Shown: positions 52,551-64,000 of the stretch, in pieces
Position numbering within the stretch: the stretch's first letter is position 1
Layout: each line of letters opens with the position of its first letter
Assembly: GCA_001784175.1 (NCBI GenBank)
Contig: MFPR01000020.1
Coordinates: forward strand, 124,001 to 188,000
Direction: 5' to 3'
Length of the DNA stretch: 64,000 nt
Source: Candidatus Lindowbacteria bacterium RIFCSPLOWO2_12_FULL_62_27
Lineage (GTDB): Bacteria > Lindowbacteria > 2-12-FULL-62-27
Program-made: the position numbers and the translations under genes
The notes under the pieces: generated by a model
What the model was told of the DNA's origin: nothing
Databases searched by the model: none
The model's input: the letters and a program-made list of their open reading frames with translations, nothing else

Positions 52551-52702
52551 GGAAGCGCCGCCCCTGTTAAAAAAATCCTATTGACAGGAGGCGCCCGATC
52601 AGGTTTAAGGAGGATACAGGAAGAGAGATACGGCATCCGAACATACAATGTGTTTTTTGTTTTCGGATTTTTCTCATAACTTTTGACACTGAGGGGTGTC
52701 GG

Positions 52703-55183
52703 GTGCCGTGTAAGCACGAGCAGGACGTGAAGGCGGGGTTGTGCACTCGAAGGCCGTATTATCTCTCGGTCTTTCTCTCCATATTGATATGGTCCTCCCT
52801 CGGATCGAGTTCTCTTGCCCTCACTCCCCGAGAGGAACTGCAACAGATTCTGAATCAAATCCCCGCCGAGTGGTGGAACGGCGGATGGGACAAGCTCGCC
52901 GAATTGGAATCGTTTATCCAAGCCTATCCGGATAAACCCGAACTTTGCGCCACGGCGCAGTTTTACATCGGGGCGTATTACAACGGCGTCAAACAATATG
53001 AAAAATCCGTCGAGGCCCATCAGACGTTGCTGACGAAATATCCAACGGCAAAGGAATGCGTGAAATCTCTGTGGGAAATCGGCTATATCCAGCAACATAG
53101 GTTGAAGAACCTGTCTGAAGCTCTTCAGGCCTATAAGCGGATCATCAATCAATATGGAGAGAGCGCCGAGACGCCGAAGGCGATGCTGGCGGCGGGCATT
53201 ATCTATCACCGGGCCAAACAACCCGATGTGGCGATCCAGACTTATCAAGACTTGATCCGAGCACATCCAGAGGCCGATGAATCTCCACGGGCTCTGTTGA
53301 AAACAGGGATCATCTACCGCGAGGTGAAGAAAAGAGATCAGGAACTCCAACCGTATGAGCAGGTGCTTCAAACTTATGGCCACACCAAGTATGCTCCGGA
53401 GGCCAAATTGTTGATCGGCGAATATCATATGCGAGCGAAGGACCATGAGAAGGCCATCGCCATATTTCAGGAAATGATCCAGGATTATCCGAGCGCGGAA
53501 AAAGTGCCGGAGGCATTGATCAATATTGGCGTGTGTTACCGGGAGCAAAGGAAATGGAAAGAGGAGATGACAGCCTATCAGGAGGTGCTGAAAAAATATG
53601 GAAACACGGAATATGCGCCCCGCGCGAAATTTGAGATGGGGGAGTGCTATCAGATCGCGAAGGACTACAACACGGCCATAGAAGTTCTGCGGGATCTGAT
53701 CTGGAAATATCCGAAATCGGAGGAGGCCCCGCGGGCGTTGTTAAAGATCGGGCTTATCTACCGCCAGTTGAATGATTTTGACCAAGAGTTGGCAACGTAC
53801 CAGAAGGTAGTCGAGCATTTTGGAAGCACCAAATACGCGGCGGCCGCCCAACTCAAGATCGGAGGGGTTTACCAACGGGCCAAGAAATACGAGAAAGCGA
53901 TCGAGGCGTATGGTGATTTGGTTAGTAACGTCCCGGATGTGGATGAAGCTCCGCGCGCGCTTATGAACACGGCCGAATGCTATTTATTGTTGAAGGATCC
54001 CGCACGTGCCATCCGGACGTTTCAGCAAGTGAGCGAGTCCTATCCCACAGGCGAATACGCGGCGAGGGCAAAACTCGCAATAGGGCGTCAGTATCTCACC
54101 TTGGGAGAAGTTGAAAAGGCAAGGGCATATCTTTCTCAAGTAGTGTCAGATCAAAAACTGATTCCCGGCCGGCCTTTAATGGAAGCACGTTTGGTGATGG
54201 GAGATATTGCAAGATCAATGGGAGAACGCGGGGAGGCATTCGGTCACTACAAAGAAGCGTATCGTGAGCCATATCACAATGTGAAATTGCTGAAGGAGGT
54301 GATCGAGAAACTATATCACGAATTTTATCACCAAGATCGCAATTATAATCGAGCAAACCGTTTCATCGCGTATCAGGCGTATGGGCCCACCGGAGAAGAT
54401 GGAGCGGGAGGAACAACAGATGACCTGAAAGACCCGTTAATTGAGGATGCGCTTGAGGCGGCGAGCATCATCCAGCGGAGGAATGAGGCATTGAGCCAAG
54501 AGGATTTGTTGGAATTGTTAAGCTATCTATTACCGAAAATAGGCAAGTTTGAGGCGGCCGAAGCCGCGAGCAAAGAAGCGATGTCAATGCAGACAAGTAA
54601 GGCGATTGATCCGACGGTCACGGTAGGGGTACGGGTGACAGCGTTGAAACAGTTGGTGAAGAATGTGGCCGCAAGTCCATTACCAATGAGCCATGTTGAA
54701 TTGTATCGGGAGGCGATCTGGAGAAAGCAGCAGAGATATAGAGATATCATTCCGTTGGTGAGGCAGTCATTGGTGGAGTACGGCGGAGCGACTGCGATTC
54801 GGGAGGTGCAGGCTGAAGCGGAGAATCTGATCGCGAATGCGTATGAACTGCTCGGCGATCTGGATCGAAGCATTCAGGAATATGAGATTCTGGCAAACAA
54901 CGCGCCGACACTGGATTGGGAATTGTTCTGGCGGTTTATTCTGGCCGAGTTATATATTGACAAGGGCGAAGATGAGAAAGGGATATCGATTTATCGCAGC
55001 GTGATTCAGAATCATTTTCAGCATGAGAACTGGCCTGCCTCTGCGCATTTTGAACTGGCGATATATTTCAAGGATATAGGGGAAGTCGCCCAAGCACGTA
55101 AAGAATTACAGGAGATCGTGGCACATTATCCGAAATCGGCATGGTTCGACCCTGCGACAATAAATCTGACGACATGGAAATGA
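52703..55183 (+). CDS. Exported tetratricopeptide-repeat protein
   Basis: Many ~37-aa repeats (YP.S..AP.AL..IG..Y); signal-like N-terminus; exact start uncertain. Confidence 0.85.
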   Translation: MPCKHEQDVKAGLCTRRPYYLSVFLSILIWSSLGSSSLALTPREELQQILNQIPAEWWNGGWDKLAELESFIQAYPDKPELCATAQFYIGAYYNGVKQYEKSVEAHQTLLTKYPTAKECVKSLWEIGYIQQHRLKNLSEALQAYKRIINQYGESAETPKAMLAAGIIYHRAKQPDVAIQTYQDLIRAHPEADESPRALLKTGIIYREVKKRDQELQPYEQVLQTYGHTKYAPEAKLLIGEYHMRAKDHEKAIAIFQEMIQDYPSAEKVPEALINIGVCYREQRKWKEEMTAYQEVLKKYGNTEYAPRAKFEMGECYQIAKDYNTAIEVLRDLIWKYPKSEEAPRALLKIGLIYRQLNDFDQELATYQKVVEHFGSTKYAAAAQLKIGGVYQRAKKYEKAIEAYGDLVSNVPDVDEAPRALMNTAECYLLLKDPARAIRTFQQVSESYPTGEYAARAKLAIGRQYLTLGEVEKARAYLSQVVSDQKLIPGRPLMEARLVMGDIARSMGERGEAFGHYKEAYREPYHNVKLLKEVIEKLYHEFYHQDRNYNRANRFIAYQAYGPTGEDGAGGTTDDLKDPLIEDALEAASIIQRRNEALSQEDLLELLSYLLPKIGKFEAAEAASKEAMSMQTSKAIDPTVTVGVRVTALKQLVKNVAASPLPMSHVELYREAIWRKQQRYRDIIPLVRQSLVEYGGATAIREVQAEAENLIANAYELLGDLDRSIQEYEILANNAPTLDWELFWRFILAELYIDKGEDEKGISIYRSVIQNHFQHENWPASAHFELAIYFKDIGEVAQARKELQEIVAHYPKSAWFDPATINLTTWK

Positions 55184-55319
55184 GATCAAACCAGATGCGG
55201 CTCTGTCGATTAGTGTCTCTTCCGGGCCTGGTGGACATCCCTCACATTCGGTCGATATCGAGGGGCTGGCGAAATGGTCGCACAGCAACAATGAGACGAT
55301 TGTTTCCCTTGGAAATACA

Positions 55320-56318
55320 ATGTCGACTTGGAGTCGACAATCATCAGCCAGCTCCGAAGAGTTTTTCATAAGCATGGCCTCTCAGAACGAGTTTCGAACC
55401 CCTCGGCTTGGGCCGAGGCTCGTTGACATAAAATATGTCCTAAAAATGCTCTTCTGGTTTATGCTATGCTCTGCCATCATGATCATCTTTGTCGTCCCTA
55501 TTGCTATAGCTTGGGTTCGAGTAACAATAACGATTCCCGGCTCTGCGGACAGGTGGTTCGTTTATTGTAACGAAACGGTTACTGTCCACGCGAGAGTTCG
55601 CTCAGGATTATGGAGACCCAACAAAGGACATAATGATATTAGTAATCCTAATTATTATCAAATACCCGTCAGCGTTATATGGTCATTGACCACAGATATG
55701 CCGACGGGCGCGGGTTCTATATCTTCGCCGTCGACCACCGATTCCTATGGTCTTACGACCACCACCTATACGGCTCCAGGTACAACCGGAGGACCTTCCA
55801 AGCTTGGGCATACCACAGTTAACGGATTAACGGCCGCGCCCGGCACTGGAGCAAAAAGCTTCCAAATACGTGGCATCCCCTCGAAACCACCTTCGCCGGA
55901 TCCAAGTGCAACTCAGTTCAGCGACTATCTTGCTTTAGTAAAGAAGTATATTAATCTTTCAACAGAACAAACGGCTAAAGATGTCTTGTCTGAACAGGAG
56001 AATGAATGTCCTGCTATCACATATGATCCTTCGCTGCCTGACACCAGGTCCGGGCTCACAAAAATAGACAAAAATACAAATGCATGTAAATCGGTTTCGT
56101 TTGGGAAGAGCGCGTTACGCGATGTTGATGAGTTTATTAAAACCGTAATACACGAGGCCGGACACATTCGGGCAAAGAATAGCACACAACCGGATAAAGA
56201 TAATGATGGTGCTCGCGAGGATTTTGACTTGGACGACAATTCATGGGAACCGAATGCATTAGAAGATTTTCTTCACCAATTCGAAACAGATCATAATCCC
56301 GGTAATATTTGTAGCTAG
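55320..56318 (+). CDS. Exported protein with Ig-like domain and C-terminal HExxH zinc-metallopeptidase motif
   Basis: Hydrophobic leader from ATG 55446 (probable start), TTDSYGLTTTTYTAP, TVIHEAGH. Confidence 0.65.
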   Translation: MSTWSRQSSASSEEFFISMASQNEFRTPRLGPRLVDIKYVLKMLFWFMLCSAIMIIFVVPIAIAWVRVTITIPGSADRWFVYCNETVTVHARVRSGLWRPNKGHNDISNPNYYQIPVSVIWSLTTDMPTGAGSISSPSTTDSYGLTTTTYTAPGTTGGPSKLGHTTVNGLTAAPGTGAKSFQIRGIPSKPPSPDPSATQFSDYLALVKKYINLSTEQTAKDVLSEQENECPAITYDPSLPDTRSGLTKIDKNTNACKSVSFGKSALRDVDEFIKTVIHEAGHIRAKNSTQPDKDNDGAREDFDLDDNSWEPNALEDFLHQFETDHNPGNICS

Positions 56319-56447
56319 TGTTTAGAAAAATGCCAATAATTGATAACGTGCGATCGGCTTCCTAATGGATGTAGATAAGGGTTTAGAGGTTGCGCGACCA
56401 GACGTACTATTCTGCCGACGAGTAAGGAATTTTACAGGAGGTGGGTC

Positions 56448-57485
56448 ATGATGGTAAGAATGAACAAGGCTCTTCTTTCGTTACTTGCACTGGTTATATT
56501 TACATGTGGTTCGCACAGAAATGCGTACCCAGATGATAAGCCGCATGACGATGATATTGATCAAGTACTCTTTATTAAATCGCCCGATCTGAATACTTTT
56601 ATTCTTCATTACTTGAAGCTTAACATTGATTCTGAAAGGGGAAAGAGAAAATCAGGAGAAGCATTCTCGTTTATATTCTCAGGTCAGTTCAATGATGAAG
56701 AAAGGATGGTGTGGCGAAAGGGCGGTCGGATCGGTCGTGAACCGGCACGGAGTATCTGGAGTCTTCGGAGTGCCGGAAAGGGTGTCTTTCCTGATGGCGA
56801 ACGCCAGACGATGAATGAAACCGTAAGAAAAGTTCTGGCTGATGGGGAGCAAAAAATGAACCCCAGGATACTTAGCACGCAGGGGTCCGGAATGATCTAT
56901 GTGGGCGAGGACAATGATTTCGAATTGGTGAGTATGATTGGTATTTATCCACTGACCAAGCAGGAATTATCGTCATTCCAAGAGGACATTACTTATACGC
57001 CGATTGAATCGGCATATTTGCAGATTGACGAATTATTCTCGAAAGCTGCTTGGACGGTCCCGGCGGATACACCAATCCGACTTGCCATGTTTCTTGTCGA
57101 TCAAATTGCATCTATTGACAGAGCTAGAAATGGACAGAGGGTGAGGATTGTTCCAGCGATTGAAATTTCACATCAGCTACGAGTAAGGGTCAATATCAAC
57201 GTGAGGGGATATCTGGATAAAACGCAACGCTTGCTTTTGGATAAAATAGCGACAAGTTTCAAGGCCTCGACGGAAAAACACAAGTGGATTAAAATATCTT
57301 TTACCGGTGTGGGACTCGTGGAAACGAAAACCAAGGGTCCACTCAGTGATTTTGAGATGGCACTGATTGAATTGTTGGTTGCCGAGATTCAATCGAAACA
57401 GACAGTTGCTGAGATAAAAATAGACGCGAAATTTAACAAGGGCGTGGGCGATGCCAAGAGCGATAACGACGATCATGATAGGTGA
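56448..57485 (+). CDS. Exported hypothetical protein
   Basis: AGGAGG RBS, signal-like MNKALLSLLALVIFTC, 345-aa ORF. Confidence 0.65.
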   Translation: MMVRMNKALLSLLALVIFTCGSHRNAYPDDKPHDDDIDQVLFIKSPDLNTFILHYLKLNIDSERGKRKSGEAFSFIFSGQFNDEERMVWRKGGRIGREPARSIWSLRSAGKGVFPDGERQTMNETVRKVLADGEQKMNPRILSTQGSGMIYVGEDNDFELVSMIGIYPLTKQELSSFQEDITYTPIESAYLQIDELFSKAAWTVPADTPIRLAMFLVDQIASIDRARNGQRVRIVPAIEISHQLRVRVNINVRGYLDKTQRLLLDKIATSFKASTEKHKWIKISFTGVGLVETKTKGPLSDFEMALIELLVAEIQSKQTVAEIKIDAKFNKGVGDAKSDNDDHDR

Positions 57486-57542
57486 CATTTGACACTCTGT
57501 CCGCTCAAATGCTGGCTAATGGCGAATTATCTGCAATAGGGG

Positions 57543-58371
57543 TTATTGCCTTTCGCCAATCCGCTTTATAATTTCAAGCACAAGCTGTGCCGAAATATCT
57601 GCGGCCATGCGGAACTGTTTACTAAAGTCCCCAGTGGCGTTTGAATTCGCCATATCACTGACGCTTCGAAGTGCCAGATATGGCACTCCCTGTTGCCAAC
57701 AAACCTGTGCGATCGCCGCCGCCTCCATTTCAACCGCGTCGGCGTGGAAAACCTTACGCAAAGACGCCTTTTTTGATGGTGAATGAAATAAATAGGTCAC
57801 CGGATACGATAACGCCTTTTAGAATATGTTGGAATCTCCTGAGTTCGTCGCTTGATTTCAGATTTATTGCAGCCGTCTCGGCGATATTCACAAGCCGAAT
57901 GGCAGCCGGGAAGAAATCCGGATTTCTGCTACCGATGATCGGATTTTTGACGCCTCGACTTGTGGTGGCTCCTTTTTCATCCAACGTTCCAAGGTCGTGT
58001 TGAGCCGTTTTCGTTGCAATTACCACGTCCCCAGTGGAGAGTTCCGGGTTGATGGCTCCGGCAACACCCGTCGAAATTACTTCATTGGGTCTAAAGTGTT
58101 CGATGAGGACGGTGGTGGTCATAGCCGCGTTGACCTTGCCGACGCCGGTGGCTGCTATGACAATTTTCCTTCCACCAATTTCTCCAATGTTGAACCTGAT
58201 TCCCTCGATGATGTGCTCCCGACCATTGCCCAAATCTGTTTTTAACAGCTCTACTTCGACATCCAATGCTCCTATGACAGCGGTTATGGAATCTTGCGCA
58301 TGGGCCATCGAATAAAACAACGGCATGTAAAGTAGGATGATGGTTTGTAGGATTCTGAAAAGGGCAGTCAT
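57543..58371 (-). pseudogene. mtnN: MTA/SAH nucleosidase with signal-like leader, frameshifted near 57770-57785
   Basis: IGALDVE, GVGKVNAA, SGDLFI in one frame; AVEMEAAAIAQV, LRSVSD in the +1 frame. Confidence 0.85.
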
Positions 58372-58441
58372 AAAGGTATATGGCCGCTTCTCGGCCGTCG
58401 GACAGTTTTTTATTTGACCTGAACTTGTATCCTGATAAGAC

Positions 58442-58585
58442 TTAATTTCGCGCTCCGGACGCGGCTTGGGATTTCGATATTTTATTGTAGCACCCTTTCC
58501 TGACCTTGGCGGATTGAGGATGCCGCTTTTCAAAAACAGAGAGTTTTTGAGATTTCTTTTTACCACCAGCATAGGCACCGGGCAT
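58442..58585 (-). CDS. Small 47-aa basic protein (not in ORF track)
   Basis: AAAAGGAGG RBS 7 nt before ATG; MPGAYAGGKKKSQKLSVFEKRHPQSAKVRKGCYNKISKSQAASGARN*. Confidence 0.45.
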   Translation of the reverse strand: MPGAYAGGKKKSQKLSVFEKRHPQSAKVRKGCYNKISKSQAASGARN

Positions 58586-58624
58586 AAGTAAGCCTCCTTT
58601 TGAATTATTCTAGTGAATATGAAA

Positions 58625-58774
58625 AATGGAGCCTAGGCTTGCCTTAACAAGCCACGCTTAAACTGGCGAAGTGTCATGGGATGTTAATACTTACTTTCAA
58701 AAATGTAGCGAAAATTAGAACTCGTTCTGGTTTTCGCTGCAACTCATTGCCAGTGAGCGTTTGTTGGCTCCATT
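58625..58774. ncRNA. Putative structured non-coding element adjoining the RT stop codon
   Basis: 9-bp terminal inverted repeat AATGGAGCC/GGCTCCATT enclosing nested stems, including an ~17-18 bp hairpin at 58704-58741. Confidence 0.55.
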
Positions 58775-60284
58775 AGGAAGTCAAGCTAACTCGGCGTTGC
58801 TTGTCAACCTTGCCGCCTTCTATTTTTAAGGTCCGAATCCAGCCCTCCAATTCTTCGGCGGCGTGGGTAAAAAACACACGATGAAAATATTGACCCCACG
58901 ATCTCGCGGTCCGATAGAACAATTCTGTTTTTTCTTCTGGGGTGTAGGGTGATGACAAAATATCAAGAAGTGCTTCCTTGCACAACTCGATGTTTTCTTT
59001 GCTCGGCTGAACCACCCCCTTCTCAATGTCGAATCCAAGCAAAGAGACGGGCTCGGTGTGCACATCGCGGGTTCCGCTCTTGCTCATGTTGATGATGAGT
59101 CCCAAATGGGTCTCAAGATATTCTTTGGCTTGGGTCAGGGTTTTTTCAGCGCCGAACTTTTTTCTGGCCACGAAGGTGACATCGTCGGCAAACCGCACCA
59201 TACGAAAGCCTTTTTGCTTGGCCCACACATCCAGCCGATGGAGAACCATGTTGCCTAGCATGGGCGACAGTGGCCCGCCCTGTGGGACACCCCGACCCCG
59301 CCGAACAAGCTCTCCATTCTCCTTTACGAGCTTGGCTCTGGCCTGGGCCATGATCCATGTGACGAGTCGCCAGTCTCCACGAAGGTCTTGCTTCAAAATC
59401 TTTCTCAATACGGGATGTGGGATCGAATCGAAAAAGTCCTTGATGTCGATGGCCACGACCCAGCGGTATCCCTCGTCCAGATAACTTCTGAAACACCGCA
59501 GCGCGTCGACCGCGCTTCTGCCGGGCCTGAACCCGAACGAAGAGGGCAGGAAGTAGGTTTCGGTGTACGGGCCGAGGACCTCGAACATCGCCGCCTGAAT
59601 GAGATGGTCTCGGACGGCGGGGATGGCCAATTCACGAACCCGCCCGTCCTTCTTGGGGATGAGCTTCTGCCGCAGCGGCCTGGGCTGAACCTGGTCCTCC
59701 AGAAATCGTTGCCGGACATCGTTGATAAACTCATCATGATTCTTAATCCGGTCGACGGATATCCCATCAACCCCGGCCGCCGGCCCGCGTTGCAGCAATC
59801 TATGCATGGCCGACTCCAGGACAAATCGTTGAGGGATCAGCGCCGACAACGGGAAGCGGATGGGATAATAGATGGACAACGACGCCGGTATGCCGCCGCG
59901 CCGAAGAGAGATCATGGCGCCTTTGGCCCTCCGCATATCGCCCGTGGGCGCCGGCGTGCGGATTCGACAGTCGCCGCCGTCCTTCGGCCGGATCAAAATT
60001 TCGCCGTTTTCGTAAGCGATGGCCGCAGGATAGAAATGAACACGGGACGCGTACCGTTGCGGAACCCATGCGTCTATGTCCCGTATGACAGGGAAGAAAT
60101 ACGGCAGTTTGGGGATGAAAAGTTTTTCCTCGTAGGGAAGGATTTCGTCCGGCTGAACACTGTCGCTTGTCAGCGCCTCCTGGAGTTGCCGTTCGGACAA
60201 TTGGGCCAGCATGAGGCGCGTGTCCGGCGCGGCAGACAAATAGTCTGTTATCACCTCTGCCAATAGCGGTGGGGGCTTGGTCAA
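58773..60284 (-). CDS. Group II intron-like reverse transcriptase with N-terminal extension
   Basis: RT0 AAGVDG, IPKKDGRVRELAIPAVRD, SFGFRPGRS, DIKDFFDSI, GVPQGGPLSP, RFADD, LLGFDI, thumb-like RSWGQYF; no HNH domain. Confidence 0.93.
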   Translation of the reverse strand: MTKPPPLLAEVITDYLSAAPDTRLMLAQLSERQLQEALTSDSVQPDEILPYEEKLFIPKLPYFFPVIRDIDAWVPQRYASRVHFYPAAIAYENGEILIRPKDGGDCRIRTPAPTGDMRRAKGAMISLRRGGIPASLSIYYPIRFPLSALIPQRFVLESAMHRLLQRGPAAGVDGISVDRIKNHDEFINDVRQRFLEDQVQPRPLRQKLIPKKDGRVRELAIPAVRDHLIQAAMFEVLGPYTETYFLPSSFGFRPGRSAVDALRCFRSYLDEGYRWVVAIDIKDFFDSIPHPVLRKILKQDLRGDWRLVTWIMAQARAKLVKENGELVRRGRGVPQGGPLSPMLGNMVLHRLDVWAKQKGFRMVRFADDVTFVARKKFGAEKTLTQAKEYLETHLGLIINMSKSGTRDVHTEPVSLLGFDIEKGVVQPSKENIELCKEALLDILSSPYTPEEKTELFYRTARSWGQYFHRVFFTHAAEELEGWIRTLKIEGGKVDKQRRVSLTS

Positions 60285-62683
60285 CGATCACCCTCACCCC
60301 AGCCCTCTCCCGCAAGCGGGAGAGGGGGAGGGGCGCCGGTCAATTCGGTGCCTGTATCCAGATTTCGGGCGATGTGAATTCTCTGGCCGGCGTCTCTGAT
60401 TGCTTCCAGCCGGTAGACTACAAAAAATATGGCGCATTTATAAATTTCAGAAAATTCCCGGAGCAGTTCAAGGATTTCCGTTTCCAAGCCGGGGTCCAGG
60501 GCGTCGATGACCTCGTCCAGCAGCAAGATTTTTGGCCTGCGCAGGAGCGCGCGCGCCAAGGCCAATCGTTTCCGTTCTCCGTGGGACAGCGATTGTGGGC
60601 CATCCAGTTTCAGGAGCAGCCCGCCCCGCCGCTCGATCATGTCCCATAATTTTACCTTTCTCAGAATTCCCTCGGCTTCGTCGGCGTCCGGCGGTCGGTT
60701 CAGTCCCAAGGACAGATTTTCCAGGACCGTGCCGTGAACGATCACGTCATCCGTTGGGACCATGACGACATGATTGCCCCATTCGATTTCACCGATTGAA
60801 TGGATCGGGATTTTGTCGATTCTGATCTCTCCGCTCGTGGGTAGAACGGTTTGATTTAGAACCAGCAGGAAAGTCGTCTTCCCTGCCCCGCTCGGTCCTG
60901 TGATCGCCGTCAATCCCTCCAATCTGTATTTCCCATGTACCGTCCAAAGAAGATGGCCGCCGTCTGGAGCATAACAAGTCAGCTTTTCCAAACGCAGGGT
61001 CTTGGGATTCTCGGGGAATTTTTCCCGGCCGGGCGCGATGCCGTCCATGGCGTCGTGTTGCCGATAGACCTCAAGGAACCTTCTGGCCCTGACAAGCACC
61101 CGCTGGATGTCCGGGCCGATATCGAACAGATCGAGGATGGGCGACAGGATCAGGGCGAACCAAGCGCCGATTCCAAAGGCGAAGCCCGGATCGAGTTCGC
61201 CATTTTTGACCGCAAGGATGGCCTGAACGATCAAGAGGACCGGCCCGATGGTCGCCAATGCATGGACCGCGACGTGGACCGCGCCGGATATGATTTGAAG
61301 TTTGACCTGTTCGTCCCTGAAGGGCGATGCCTTCTCTCGTACCCGGCGAAGCGCGTCTCGCAGGATGCGCATGGCGCGGATCGAATCCGCCTTGCCAAGA
61401 ACCTCCACCATCCGTTCGTTGGTCTGGCCGCGCAGACGCGCTATGCCCCACGAGTAGTGATAAACAAGGGCGCTGAAAACGGCGTATAAAACACCGATGA
61501 CTACGACGAGAACGGTTAGTTGTACGACGAAGTTCAGCGGCAACATAAACAGAAAAATCGGCAGTGGAAGCAAATGGGCCAGCCCTGTCGCAAATGTTGT
61601 GACGATTGAAATGGTTCCATCGAAGGCGGCATCGGCGTCGTCGAATCGCGTCAACAACTCCCCGGCCGGGTAACGCGTTTTGCGCTTCAGGACTCGTTGC
61701 ACAAATTTCAGTTGCCATTGCAGCCACAAGGAACTCACGGCGGAGGATTCGTAGGCTTCTTTCGTTGCGGAAACAACCAAGCCCACAACGACCAATAGTC
61801 CGATGATCCCGGCGCCCATGAGAATTTCGTTTATTTCGCCCGCGTGCCATATCGACGCGATGAGAAACGGCACAGGAACGAGGAGCAATGAGGAGACGAT
61901 GTCGAAAACGAACAATGTGGCGGGAATTCGCCAGTAAGGTTTCAGGAGCCGCAGCATTCCAAAGATGGGCCAGAGGCGCGATCTTTCCTGCCGGAAAAGG
62001 TCTGTAAAGAAAGTGAACGGGTGCCAGAAAACAGATAAGGGTCCGAAACGTTCCTGTGACATCCATCGTCGTGTAAACGACCTCGGCGGTGGAAAAGTCT
62101 CTTTCAAAATATTGATGAACCGATGAAGTCCTTCCAGTTTGTCGGCGATGTTGTTCAACCGGACCACGTCACCAGCCGTGATGGATAGTTGCAAGTCGAT
62201 GTCAGCCAGCCGGGGAATTCTTTGGCCCGGTGGCGGGGCCCATCGACAGGCCAGTGCGAAGGCCGCGTCGATCGCCGCCCAGAGCGCGATGTCAAGAAGG
62301 GGGAGAGCATCCGCGCTGCCGCCCGCCCGAAGCGCCGCGTCCCGTTTTGAAAAAAAGTCTTCCCACAGACTTGCGGCCTCTGACGGGGTGAGGGGATGGG
62401 GTCTTTCCCACGCTTGGGATGCCATCGATATAAACGTGTCGGCCATGCCGGAAACAGCTTTCCCCTGAGCGATCTTTCGGAAGAAGGGGCCGTTTCGTTG
62501 TCTTCGCGCCGTTATTCTCTCTATGAGGTCGCTTCGGCTCGTGTAATCGACAACGAAGTCCCGGACGTTCTCCGAGTGGGTCTCTCGGGTTCTCGGGCCG
62601 GCGGTTGTGACAACCAGAAATTCGTTGTCCGAGAACCGGATGACCGCTTCTGTTCCGGAGGACTTTAGAAAATCAAGAGCCAT
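60281..62683 (-). CDS. ABC exporter (TMD+NBD, type I secretion/bacteriocin-export-like) with unknown ~240-aa N-terminal domain
   Basis: TMD from LRLLKPYWR, GELLTRF; Walker A GPSGAGKT, LSHGERKRLALARALL, Walker B ILLLDE. Confidence 0.9.
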   Translation of the reverse strand: MALDFLKSSGTEAVIRFSDNEFLVVTTAGPRTRETHSENVRDFVVDYTSRSDLIERITARRQRNGPFFRKIAQGKAVSGMADTFISMASQAWERPHPLTPSEAASLWEDFFSKRDAALRAGGSADALPLLDIALWAAIDAAFALACRWAPPPGQRIPRLADIDLQLSITAGDVVRLNNIADKLEGLHRFINILKETFPPPRSFTRRWMSQERFGPLSVFWHPFTFFTDLFRQERSRLWPIFGMLRLLKPYWRIPATLFVFDIVSSLLLVPVPFLIASIWHAGEINEILMGAGIIGLLVVVGLVVSATKEAYESSAVSSLWLQWQLKFVQRVLKRKTRYPAGELLTRFDDADAAFDGTISIVTTFATGLAHLLPLPIFLFMLPLNFVVQLTVLVVVIGVLYAVFSALVYHYSWGIARLRGQTNERMVEVLGKADSIRAMRILRDALRRVREKASPFRDEQVKLQIISGAVHVAVHALATIGPVLLIVQAILAVKNGELDPGFAFGIGAWFALILSPILDLFDIGPDIQRVLVRARRFLEVYRQHDAMDGIAPGREKFPENPKTLRLEKLTCYAPDGGHLLWTVHGKYRLEGLTAITGPSGAGKTTFLLVLNQTVLPTSGEIRIDKIPIHSIGEIEWGNHVVMVPTDDVIVHGTVLENLSLGLNRPPDADEAEGILRKVKLWDMIERRGGLLLKLDGPQSLSHGERKRLALARALLRRPKILLLDEVIDALDPGLETEILELLREFSEIYKCAIFFVVYRLEAIRDAGQRIHIARNLDTGTELTGAPPPLPLAGEGWGEGDR
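60290..60333. repeat. REP-like palindromic element inside the 3' end of the ABC gene
   Basis: CCCTCACCCCAGCCCTCTCCCGCAAGCGGGAGAGGGG; same family as 9112-9149. Confidence 0.75.
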
Positions 62684-62689
62684 GGGGGG

Positions 62690-63472
62690 CTATTGTCCAA
62701 ACTTGATAACCGCTCCCTCCGGCCTTTGGGCCAGGAGCACACCAAACAGAGAGCCTTTGTAATGTACGGCCTCGACGACCACTTCCGATCCGATTGGAGG
62801 GACGGTCGTATCCGTGAATGCGACGGTGCAGTTGACATGAGATTCATAAGAACGGTTCGGCCGGATGAGGCCAACACCCCGGAAAACAACTCTGCCTGAA
62901 TAACGCTTGCCCCAGACATCCGTTATCGAAACAAGAGAGCCTTCGCCAAACGCCCTAAACCCGCGTTCGGGCACAGGCACATCAATTGTCGGAGAATCCG
63001 ATTGATAAATACGAAACAGCGGTCGGTCTTCGATGACCGTGCGGCCTTCCTCCAAAAAATCGAATAATTCGACGATCCCGGTCACGGGTGCGCGAAGAAC
63101 CACGGCCTTCATATTCTCTTCGAGCCGCTGCATCCGCGTTTTGACGTGTTCATCTCGCGGGAGCGGTATGTCAATCCATCCAGTTTCGAGTTTGGATTGT
63201 AAAGATGAGATTTCATCTGCGAAGCCGCCCGTATCCAGAATCAGGACGGGATCGCCCGCAGAAACCTTCACGCCTGTTGAGGCGACGATTTTTTTCAGAG
63301 GCGCCTTAAACGGTGCGGAGACCAGGATGGTCTTGCCGGTCACTGTTCCGGCCGCCGGAACCACGATGCGGACGGGAACGAATATTGTCAGGGCGACAGC
63401 GACCATGACCGCGAGGCCCAAAACGGTCCTGCCGATTCGAGCGATGAATTTGGGTGAAATCCAGCGGTTCAT
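62690..63472 (-). CDS. HlyD-family membrane fusion protein (short)
   Basis: N-terminal TM, lipoyl-like halves VSAGDPVLILD and LRAPVTGIV around a short helical hairpin. Confidence 0.78.
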   Translation of the reverse strand: MNRWISPKFIARIGRTVLGLAVMVAVALTIFVPVRIVVPAAGTVTGKTILVSAPFKAPLKKIVASTGVKVSAGDPVLILDTGGFADEISSLQSKLETGWIDIPLPRDEHVKTRMQRLEENMKAVVLRAPVTGIVELFDFLEEGRTVIEDRPLFRIYQSDSPTIDVPVPERGFRAFGEGSLVSITDVWGKRYSGRVVFRGVGLIRPNRSYESHVNCTVAFTDTTVPPIGSEVVVEAVHYKGSLFGVLLAQRPEGAVIKFGQ

Positions 63473-64000
63473 TCTTCCACGTCCGTCGATTTTTCTTCAA
63501 TCAGTTCCTTGTTCAAGGCGACAAGAGACGATCCCGGTGAGCCCGGATAGGGCGTTGGATTCTCCATAAACAGTCTGTCGCACTGGGGACAGCTTGTCAC
63601 ATCCGGCTGTAAATCGAGAGACCTCTTTTTTCCATCCTCGCGCGGTGGGACAAGGTGAACGAAACTCGACGGCGAGTACCATTCGGCGGGAGGCTTGCCG
63701 CCCACGCGCCTGAGAAGGTCCTCCGCCAGATCCAACAGCGTCTTCACCGCGCTCATGAACGCCGTTTTTGAAGCGGAGGCTCGGCCAAGATAAGGCGACA
63801 TGCCGCGGGCCAGGTCGTGACTGTTGGTGATCCGGCGGCTGATGCTCGCCACTTCCAGATAAATCTTGAACAGGAGGTCCATCGATTGGTCCCCTCGGGC
63901 CAACAGTTCATTGAGGTTGTCGATCCACGTATCGAGACGAATCCGGTGATGGAACAATTCGCGCGATGGGATGAGGCGCGTTCGATGAGCGTTCTCGGCG
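63469..64000 (-). CDS. Hypothetical protein, 5' end beyond window, C-terminal CxxC
   Basis: Frame stays open to the window edge (AENAHRTRLIPSRELFHHR..); CPQC; ATGA overlap with the HlyD gene. Confidence 0.65.
   Translation of the reverse strand, partial: AENAHRTRLIPSRELFHHRIRLDTWIDNLNELLARGDQSMDLLFKIYLEVASISRRITNSHDLARGMSPYLGRASASKTAFMSAVKTLLDLAEDLLRRVGGKPPAEWYSPSSFVHLVPPREDGKKRSLDLQPDVTSCPQCDRLFMENPTPYPGSPGSSLVALNKELIEEKSTDVEE

Follow-up and report, generated by a model that had tools for sequence, protein, structure and literature searches.

The window analysed here comprises 64,000 nucleotides of contig MFPR01000020.1 (positions 124,001 to 188,000) from Candidatus Lindowbacteria bacterium RIFCSPLOWO2_12_FULL_62_27. 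It contains on the (-) strand, at 58773..60284 of the window, a gene for a 503-aa reverse transcriptase (RT). On balance, the gene is best explained as a domesticated, free-standing group II intron-like (G2L-type) RT in a cassette with an ABC exporter. There is little doubt that the RT is intron-less, domesticated and under selection. The question whether the RT and the ABC cassette make up a functional unit is evenly balanced, and an anti-phage role of the cassette is possible but unlikely. Judging by a tree of database matches, the RT belongs to a new lineage of domesticated group II-like RTs with a new gene association.

Domain organization of the reverse transcriptase

The initial annotation of the window, made from the sequence alone, had described RT0 to RT7 and a short thumb as intact, and these domains are indeed complete. 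The TIGR04416 model of group II RTs and maturases aligns with its positions 4-343 of 353 to aa 156-485 of the protein at 242.1 bits. Therefore, nothing is missing between RT0 and the thumb, and the alignment leaves about 155 residues ahead of RT0, as had been proposed. RVT_1 is the only Pfam family matching the protein (aa 209-419, E 2.8e-29). An AlphaFold2 (AF2) model of the full RT, based on a 44-row alignment, has a mean predicted local distance difference test (pLDDT) of 73.9 and is confident for aa 150-488. It includes three thumb helices at residues 429-443, 449-469 and 473-484.

The catalytic motif of RT5 is RFADD, at aa 364-368 (codons at 59181..59195, (-) strand), instead of YADD, and RT3 contributes D280. 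Since the fingers, palm and thumb are complete and all three catalytic aspartates are kept, the RT probably has polymerase activity. Its C-terminus lies 18 aa beyond the last aligned thumb residue, while the aligned intron RTs run about 90 residues further. Neither a D domain nor an HNH endonuclease (En) domain was found by Pfam, in the alignment or in the AF2 model, in agreement with the earlier statement that the endonuclease is missing.

The start codon had been left for comparison between TTG 60284 and internal ATGs. TTG 60284 is preferred because an in-frame TGA lies two codons upstream, a GAGG is located 7 nt upstream, and residues 4-17 are conserved in the homologues P0002 and P0003 and on the metagenomic contig L025. 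Other gene callers chose internal TTG or ATG starts, resulting in 488-aa and 479-aa versions within the same 90% cluster.

Absence of an intron RNA

No intron RNA was recognised around the gene. Rfam at the gathering score gave no match in the whole 64-kb window. At E<=10, no intron model, domain V included, matched between 56000 and 64000, and only two chance snoRNA-like matches were obtained. The same genome provides a positive control. Its true intron L002, on contig C10 (genome G000), was detected around its RT open reading frame (ORF) with RF02005 at 132.8 bits and RF00029 at 47.1 bits. The RT of this intron reaches 377 bits with TIGR04416. A second domain V of the genome lies beside a short RT fragment on contig C4 (L003). 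Across two scans of metagenomic loci with relatives of the RT, intron RNA was detected at 14 of 29 loci (4/9 and 10/20). A blastn comparison of 59800-60330 with 16 intron-bearing loci found no residual ribozyme similarity; the matches were confined to a hairpin resembling repetitive extragenic palindromic (REP) elements.

The RT also differs from group II intron RTs in its protein. It has no D domain, it carries F in place of Y in RT5, it possesses an additional N-terminal domain of 155 aa, and it falls in a long-stemmed clade of its own below the TIGR04416 cut-off. A mobile group II intron-encoded protein was rejected as an identification: RT0 to RT7 and the thumb are shared, no intron RNA is present, and 242.1 bits is below the curated cut-off of 300 bits. 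Thus, the proposal of a non-mobile RT without recognisable intron RNA stands.

The orphan N-terminal domain

The N-terminal domain (aa 1-155, encoded by 59820..60284 on the (-) strand) was characterised by conservation, codon substitution and homologue search. The peptide which the initial annotation quoted as matching nothing recognised maps to aa 56-100 within it. A search of 5.8 billion proteins yielded 8000 scored candidates, 2584 of them with E<=0.001. Besides the query's own cluster, three of those scored cover the N-terminus, namely P0002 (72% identity), P0003 (71%) and P0004 (70%). The next-best match has 34% identity and covers the RT part alone. When residues 1-155 were run through HMMER against all 1.84 billion representatives, three matches were returned, all of the RT family. 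One is the family representative, another (P0127) is the product of the chimeric contig L025, and the third (P0128) is a misread ORF joining the 3' end of the ABC gene to the 5' end of the RT gene. Pfam at E<=10 returned no family for this domain, and the ESM Atlas gave no usable match for residues 1-155. Foldseek with the full RT model matched the RT part only. Nothing below E 0.03 was obtained when the domain was compared by BLASTP with the cassette proteins and with 11 further RT ORFs, or by tblastn with the whole genome. In these searches, the domain had no detectable relatives outside the family.

The four proteins align without a gap across this region, which is also conserved in L025. 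Over 69 codons compared with L025, the proportions of nonsynonymous and synonymous differences (pN and pS) are 0.128 and 0.728, corresponding to an omega (dN/dS) of 0.053. For comparison, 143 codons of the ABC 3' end have an omega of 0.105 against the same contig; both omega values are approximate, as synonymous sites are near saturation (pS 0.68-0.73), though the contrast is plain. By these codon comparisons, the N-terminal domain is real protein-coding sequence under strong purifying selection.

This result bears on the possibility that the locus is a decaying group II intron remnant, in which the ORF is a relic and the extension an accidental, functionless read-through of the former ribozyme. 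Several features would fit such a remnant. No intron RNA is left, the D domain is gone, and the 465-nt extension sits where, by our inference, intron domains I-III would be. The extension has no relatives outside the family and is poorly folded in AF2, where the pLDDT of residues 1-86 stays below 50 and that of a beta-rich stretch (87-141) is about 45-70. Against this, omega in the extension is 0.053, and the four proteins, which are 69-74% identical, contain no frameshifts or stops. The RT motifs and the three aspartates are all retained, and the DNA of the extension, the REP-like hairpin apart, is unlike the 16 intron-bearing loci. A remnant is therefore extremely unlikely. The specific scenario raised at the outset, a region absent from homologues and equivalent to intron domains I-III, is refuted by the low omega and the conservation. 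The domain is present in every close homologue, with a dN/dS of 0.05.

Relationship to known reverse transcriptases

The closest solved relative of the RT is a class C intron RT. In the Foldseek search of the PDB, the top match of the model was the GsI-IIC RT (6ar1; E 8e-26, 32% identity, TM score 0.73 by target), an En-less class C enzyme with the same fold from RT0 to RT7 and the thumb. The G2L4 RT (9d4s) ranked 27th. In phmmer searches against PDB sequences, GsI-IIC scored 166 bits, Cas6-RT-Cas1 90 bits and G2L4 (9d4s) 38.6 bits. The distance from intron RTs is apparent in the TIGR04416 scores. The four family members reach 242-251 bits (242.1 for the window RT, 244-251 for the others), all under the cut-off, and five intron RTs (P0005, P0028, L002, L006, L010) reach 304-447 bits. 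Among intron-less RTs, L007 scores 300, L008 243, L009 241 and L033 196 bits.

A quick IQ-TREE analysis of 42 RT cores over 339 columns, built from database matches only, places the four family members in one clade with 100% support and a stem of 1.56 changes per column. The partial ORFs L023, L029, L030, L032 and L034 were left out of the tree, as were L025, L031 and the loci from L036 on, with the exception of L039 and L040. The family clade is not nested in any sampled intron class. Together with the intron classes and another clade, whose proteins have about 980 aa, it emerges from a polytomy. PADLOC was run on L009 and L012, two members of the latter clade, and both are RT-Cas1 fusions.

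The replacement of Y by F at RT5 is common to 4/4 family members (F365), while Y is found in 40/40 group II RTs of the alignment (A3). Beyond the family, F occurs in L008, L009, L011, L012, L016 and L033, in all six cases without detected intron RNA. In 13/13 rows with detected intron RNA, the residue is Y. L007 is intron-less, yet has Tyr at this position, and L040 has His. For CRISPR-associated RTs, F is given for 66% of the sequences surveyed in PMC4244168. Since F recurs in intron-less RTs and in this share of CRISPR-associated RTs, FADD is, across the sequences compared, a recurrent trait of domesticated relatives and no sign of inactivity.

G2L RTs have been defined by their closeness to intron RTs and the lack of intron RNA, and some groups keep the maturase/thumb motif; the category, as these sources describe it, is broad and paraphyletic (PMC2602772; PMC4244168; PMC8632793). 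The present RT has all of the broad features, i.e., intron RTs as nearest relatives, no intron RNA and a retained thumb. Two described groups were considered for it. The active site reported for G2L4 is YIDD (PMC4244168). The RFADD motif and the score of 38.6 bits, compared with 166 bits for GsI-IIC, set the present RT apart from G2L4. G2L5 is described as having DN in place of DD at RT5 and as being extended N-terminally by about 500 aa (PMC2602772). The present RT keeps DD and has an extension of 155 aa; it is distinguished from G2L5 by the description of that group, not by its sequence.

CRISPR-associated RTs (RT-Cas1, Cas6-RT-Cas1; 7kft) resemble the family in two respects. Their divergence from intron RTs is similar (196-243 bits with TIGR04416, against 242-251 here), and they share FADD. 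An orphaned CRISPR-associated RT, or a retron- or DRT-like RT with a nearby non-coding RNA template, was therefore considered as an explanation. FADD is common to the RT-Cas1 fusions and the intron-less L008, in line with the predominance of F which PMC4244168 reports. For a retron-like arrangement, the folding of the 231 nt across the RT stop (58560-58790) is slightly better than that of shuffled sequences (z -2.7). The surroundings of the gene argue against this explanation. The RT is not fused to Cas1, PADLOC found no Cas match among the 7 neighbouring ORFs, and no CRISPR array is present in the 64 kb, in which the sole tandem repeat has a 12-nt period. The tree keeps the family apart from the RT-Cas1 clade, but its deep branches lack resolution. 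Retron, DRT/UG and Abi defence RTs were likewise rejected; UG17 scores 114 bits here, compared with 141-171 bits for true intron RTs, and no partner genes were found. The top PADLOC model for the RT is PDLC01136 (196.5 bits), which is too generic to classify it, since true intron RTs score 196-293 bits on the same model. Overall, an origin among CRISPR-associated or retron-like RTs is very unlikely.

The ABC transporter cassette

The domesticated RT is the last of four genes of an accessory cassette on the (-) strand, a context that the initial annotation had missed. The first (63469..64000 in the window, running on to the window-equivalent position 64362; L004:1469-2362) encodes a protein of 297 aa. 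The second (62690..63472) encodes a short adaptor of 260 aa resembling HlyD and membrane-fusion proteins. The third (60281..62683) encodes an ABC exporter of 800 aa with an orphan N-terminal domain (about aa 1-250), a transmembrane domain and a nucleotide-binding domain. The genes are tightly packed. Genes 1 and 2 overlap by 4 nt, 6 nt separate genes 2 and 3, and the TTG of the RT lies on the TGA of the ABC gene in a TTGA stop/start overlap (60281..60284, (-) strand). Given this 4-nt overlap, the RT would be co-transcribed with the ABC gene and its translation coupled to that of the ABC protein.

All NCBIfam scores of the ABC protein are far under the cut-offs (the best is CydC, 144.7 against 329), and the adaptor falls below the cut-offs too (HlyD_3, 19.9 bits against 22.2). 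Bacteriocin and type I secretion-style exporters have the same half-transporter layout, with an HlyD-like gene ahead of the ABC gene. The cassette differs from them in its low NCBIfam scores, the length of the adaptor, just 260 aa, and the RT attached to the operon. No C39 peptidase is recognisable in the ABC N-terminal domain, for which Pfam gave no match at E<=10. The AF2 model of this domain, from four rows, has a pLDDT of 44.7, too low for use. The signature motif of the ABC protein is LSHGE.

The 297-aa protein has no Pfam (E<=10) or NCBIfam match. In the ESM Atlas it lies near KNTase-like nucleotidyltransferases (feature score 0.92, TM 0.48-0.58), which is a lead only. It contains an Rx4H motif (RITNSH), noted by eye, and one invariant CPxC close to the C-terminus. 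Furthermore, it is the best-conserved member of the cassette: it shares 85% identity with its homologue P0134, whereas the RT and the ABC protein are 71-74% identical to their counterparts from the contig of the same length, 6920 bases.

Distribution and conservation of the gene order

The association of RT and ABC gene recurs within the family. A search with ABC residues 1-330 retrieved four proteins: that of the window, P0122 (76% identity), P0123 (74%) and P0124 (53%). P0122 and the RT P0002 are both on 24048-base contigs, and P0123 and the RT P0003 are both on 6920-base contigs, as is P0134. P0124 is on a 3011-base contig. On contig L025, the ABC 3' end is followed by the same hairpin and then by the RT start, here with an ATGA overlap. 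The order ABC-then-RT is thus seen or inferred in five loci, i.e., the window, L025, P0128 and the two cases in which RT and ABC protein come from contigs of equal size. The stop/start overlap is present in both loci for which DNA is available (window and L025). In the protein searches, the distribution of the ABC N-terminal domain was as narrow as that of the RT and coincided with it.

The lineage is rare: it is represented by about five loci, and each of them comes from an assembly of uncultured groundwater or soil organisms. Full-length RT, ABC N-terminal domain and 297-aa protein were not found in three genomes of the same family (88, 91 and 81% complete). Alignment searches with the RT and the ABC protein revealed no relative in species-representative genomes or viral contigs. 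In a metagenome scan, only an identical contig (L005) and the 1055-base chimeric contig L025 matched the N-terminal domain of the RT. Past RT residue 71, L025 continues into unrelated sequence with a DHR..DG motif, which may resemble a 2-oxoacid dehydrogenase acyltransferase; the contig is probably a chimeric low-coverage assembly.

The cassette has a guanine-cytosine (GC) content of 55-58%, compared with 43-51% in the adjoining 53-59 kb and 61.3% in the genome. It lies in a lower-GC island from about 52700 to 64000, continuing to 64400 (43-58%), between tatD/metG and def. Apart from the RT cassette, the island contains an 826-aa tetratricopeptide repeat protein, two family-less ORFs (332 and 345 aa) and a nucleosidase gene. 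The latter, an MTA/SAH nucleosidase gene downstream of the RT (57543-58578, (-) strand), is split over two frames. Of the 233 profile positions, 3-155 are matched by a 274-aa ORF; what looks, by eye, like the remainder is carried by an 85-aa ORF overlapping it. This points to a frameshift or an assembly error near 57754-57800.

Coupled or stand-alone function

Several observations weigh against a functional link between the RT and the cassette. The linkage of P0002 with P0122 and of P0003 with P0123 is inferred from equal base counts of the contigs, not from sequence, and the protein search found no 297-aa homologue for the 24048-base contig. Because the family members are 53-85% identical to each other, common descent alone might account for the conserved gene order. 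The flanks are of the housekeeping type (metG, tatD, holB-like, def, htpX-like/M48 peptidase) with no recognisable defence island, and PADLOC gave no system-level match at the locus. Residue 757 of the ABC protein, between the invariant V756 and R758 and taken as the H-loop histidine, is Tyr in the window copy and His in three homologues; the ATPase of this copy may be weakened. Moreover, a GC-rich hairpin (CCCTCTCCC-loop-GGGAGAGGG; 60303..60326, (-) strand) lies within the 3' end of the ABC ORF, 19 nt ahead of the RT start. It could attenuate read-through instead of coupling the genes. This REP-like hairpin has 91 copies in the genome and is kept at the same spot in L025. Where it is translated, several ORFs end in 'PLP.AGEGWGEG' tails; the ABC C-terminus is one example, and ORFs in L002 and L004 are others. 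A complex prediction of the RT with ABC residues 1-250 scored 0.00; it was made without control runs and counts neither way.

The hairpin also suggests another history. Class C introns insert after stem-loops. The RT might be a stand-alone, G2L4-like host polymerase for DNA repair or template switching, its place behind the ABC gene being a relic of a class C intron which landed after the hairpin, and its partners irrelevant. The kinship with GsI-IIC and the position of the hairpin in both the window and L025 are consistent with this history. The close kinship of the family members also makes the shared order a weak indication of shared function. A precedent is G2L4, which is described as a domesticated group II-like RT acting alone in repair (PMC12337344; 10.1101/2022.03.14.484287). 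However, the present RT has low similarity to G2L4 and carries FADD, not YIDD. The stop/start overlap is kept in two loci despite the saturated synonymous sites, and the RT and the orphan ABC N-terminal domain share the same narrow distribution. A stand-alone polymerase is therefore a serious alternative, although rather on the unlikely side. A further idea is that a class C intron behind the terminal hairpin of the operon had its 5' ribozyme half overprinted, and that the N-terminal domain originated de novo in this way; this is speculation because no residual similarity to intron 5' regions was found.

For the preferred reading, a domesticated RT belonging to the ABC cassette, the following mechanism can be envisaged. 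The orphan N-terminal domain, for which the initial annotation had proposed an interaction or effector role, would serve as an adaptor between a cassette partner, most likely the cytoplasmic N-terminal domain of the ABC protein, and cDNA synthesis or the binding of nucleic acids. The cassette would then act as one conditionally useful module, related to stress or phage, and not as a housekeeping exporter. In a more far-reaching version, the RT would be tethered through its N-terminal domain to the membrane complex of ABC protein and adaptor, with the KNTase-like enzyme alongside, and would couple reverse transcription or the sensing of foreign RNA to a membrane or export effector. Such a new RT-based system is decidedly doubtful. 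We know of no described RT system with the architecture of RT, ABC exporter, adaptor and KNTase-like protein. An association of G2L RTs with ABC or HlyD genes was not found in the literature either, although the limited search is a thin basis for considering it unpublished.

Significance for group II-like reverse transcriptases

Domesticated group II-like RTs are the source of the RTs which acquire CRISPR spacers and of the DNA-repair RT G2L4, and most free-standing lineages of this kind have no assigned role. To these, the present lineage contributes an example in which an orphan domain is under selection and the RT is in fixed linkage with the operon of a membrane transporter. It also yields a compact and concrete four-gene cassette for testing. 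If the link to the ABC exporter is functional, it would bring a membrane or export partner into the range of RT-based systems. Otherwise, the locus would be an example of an intron RT captured behind a host operon and then kept.

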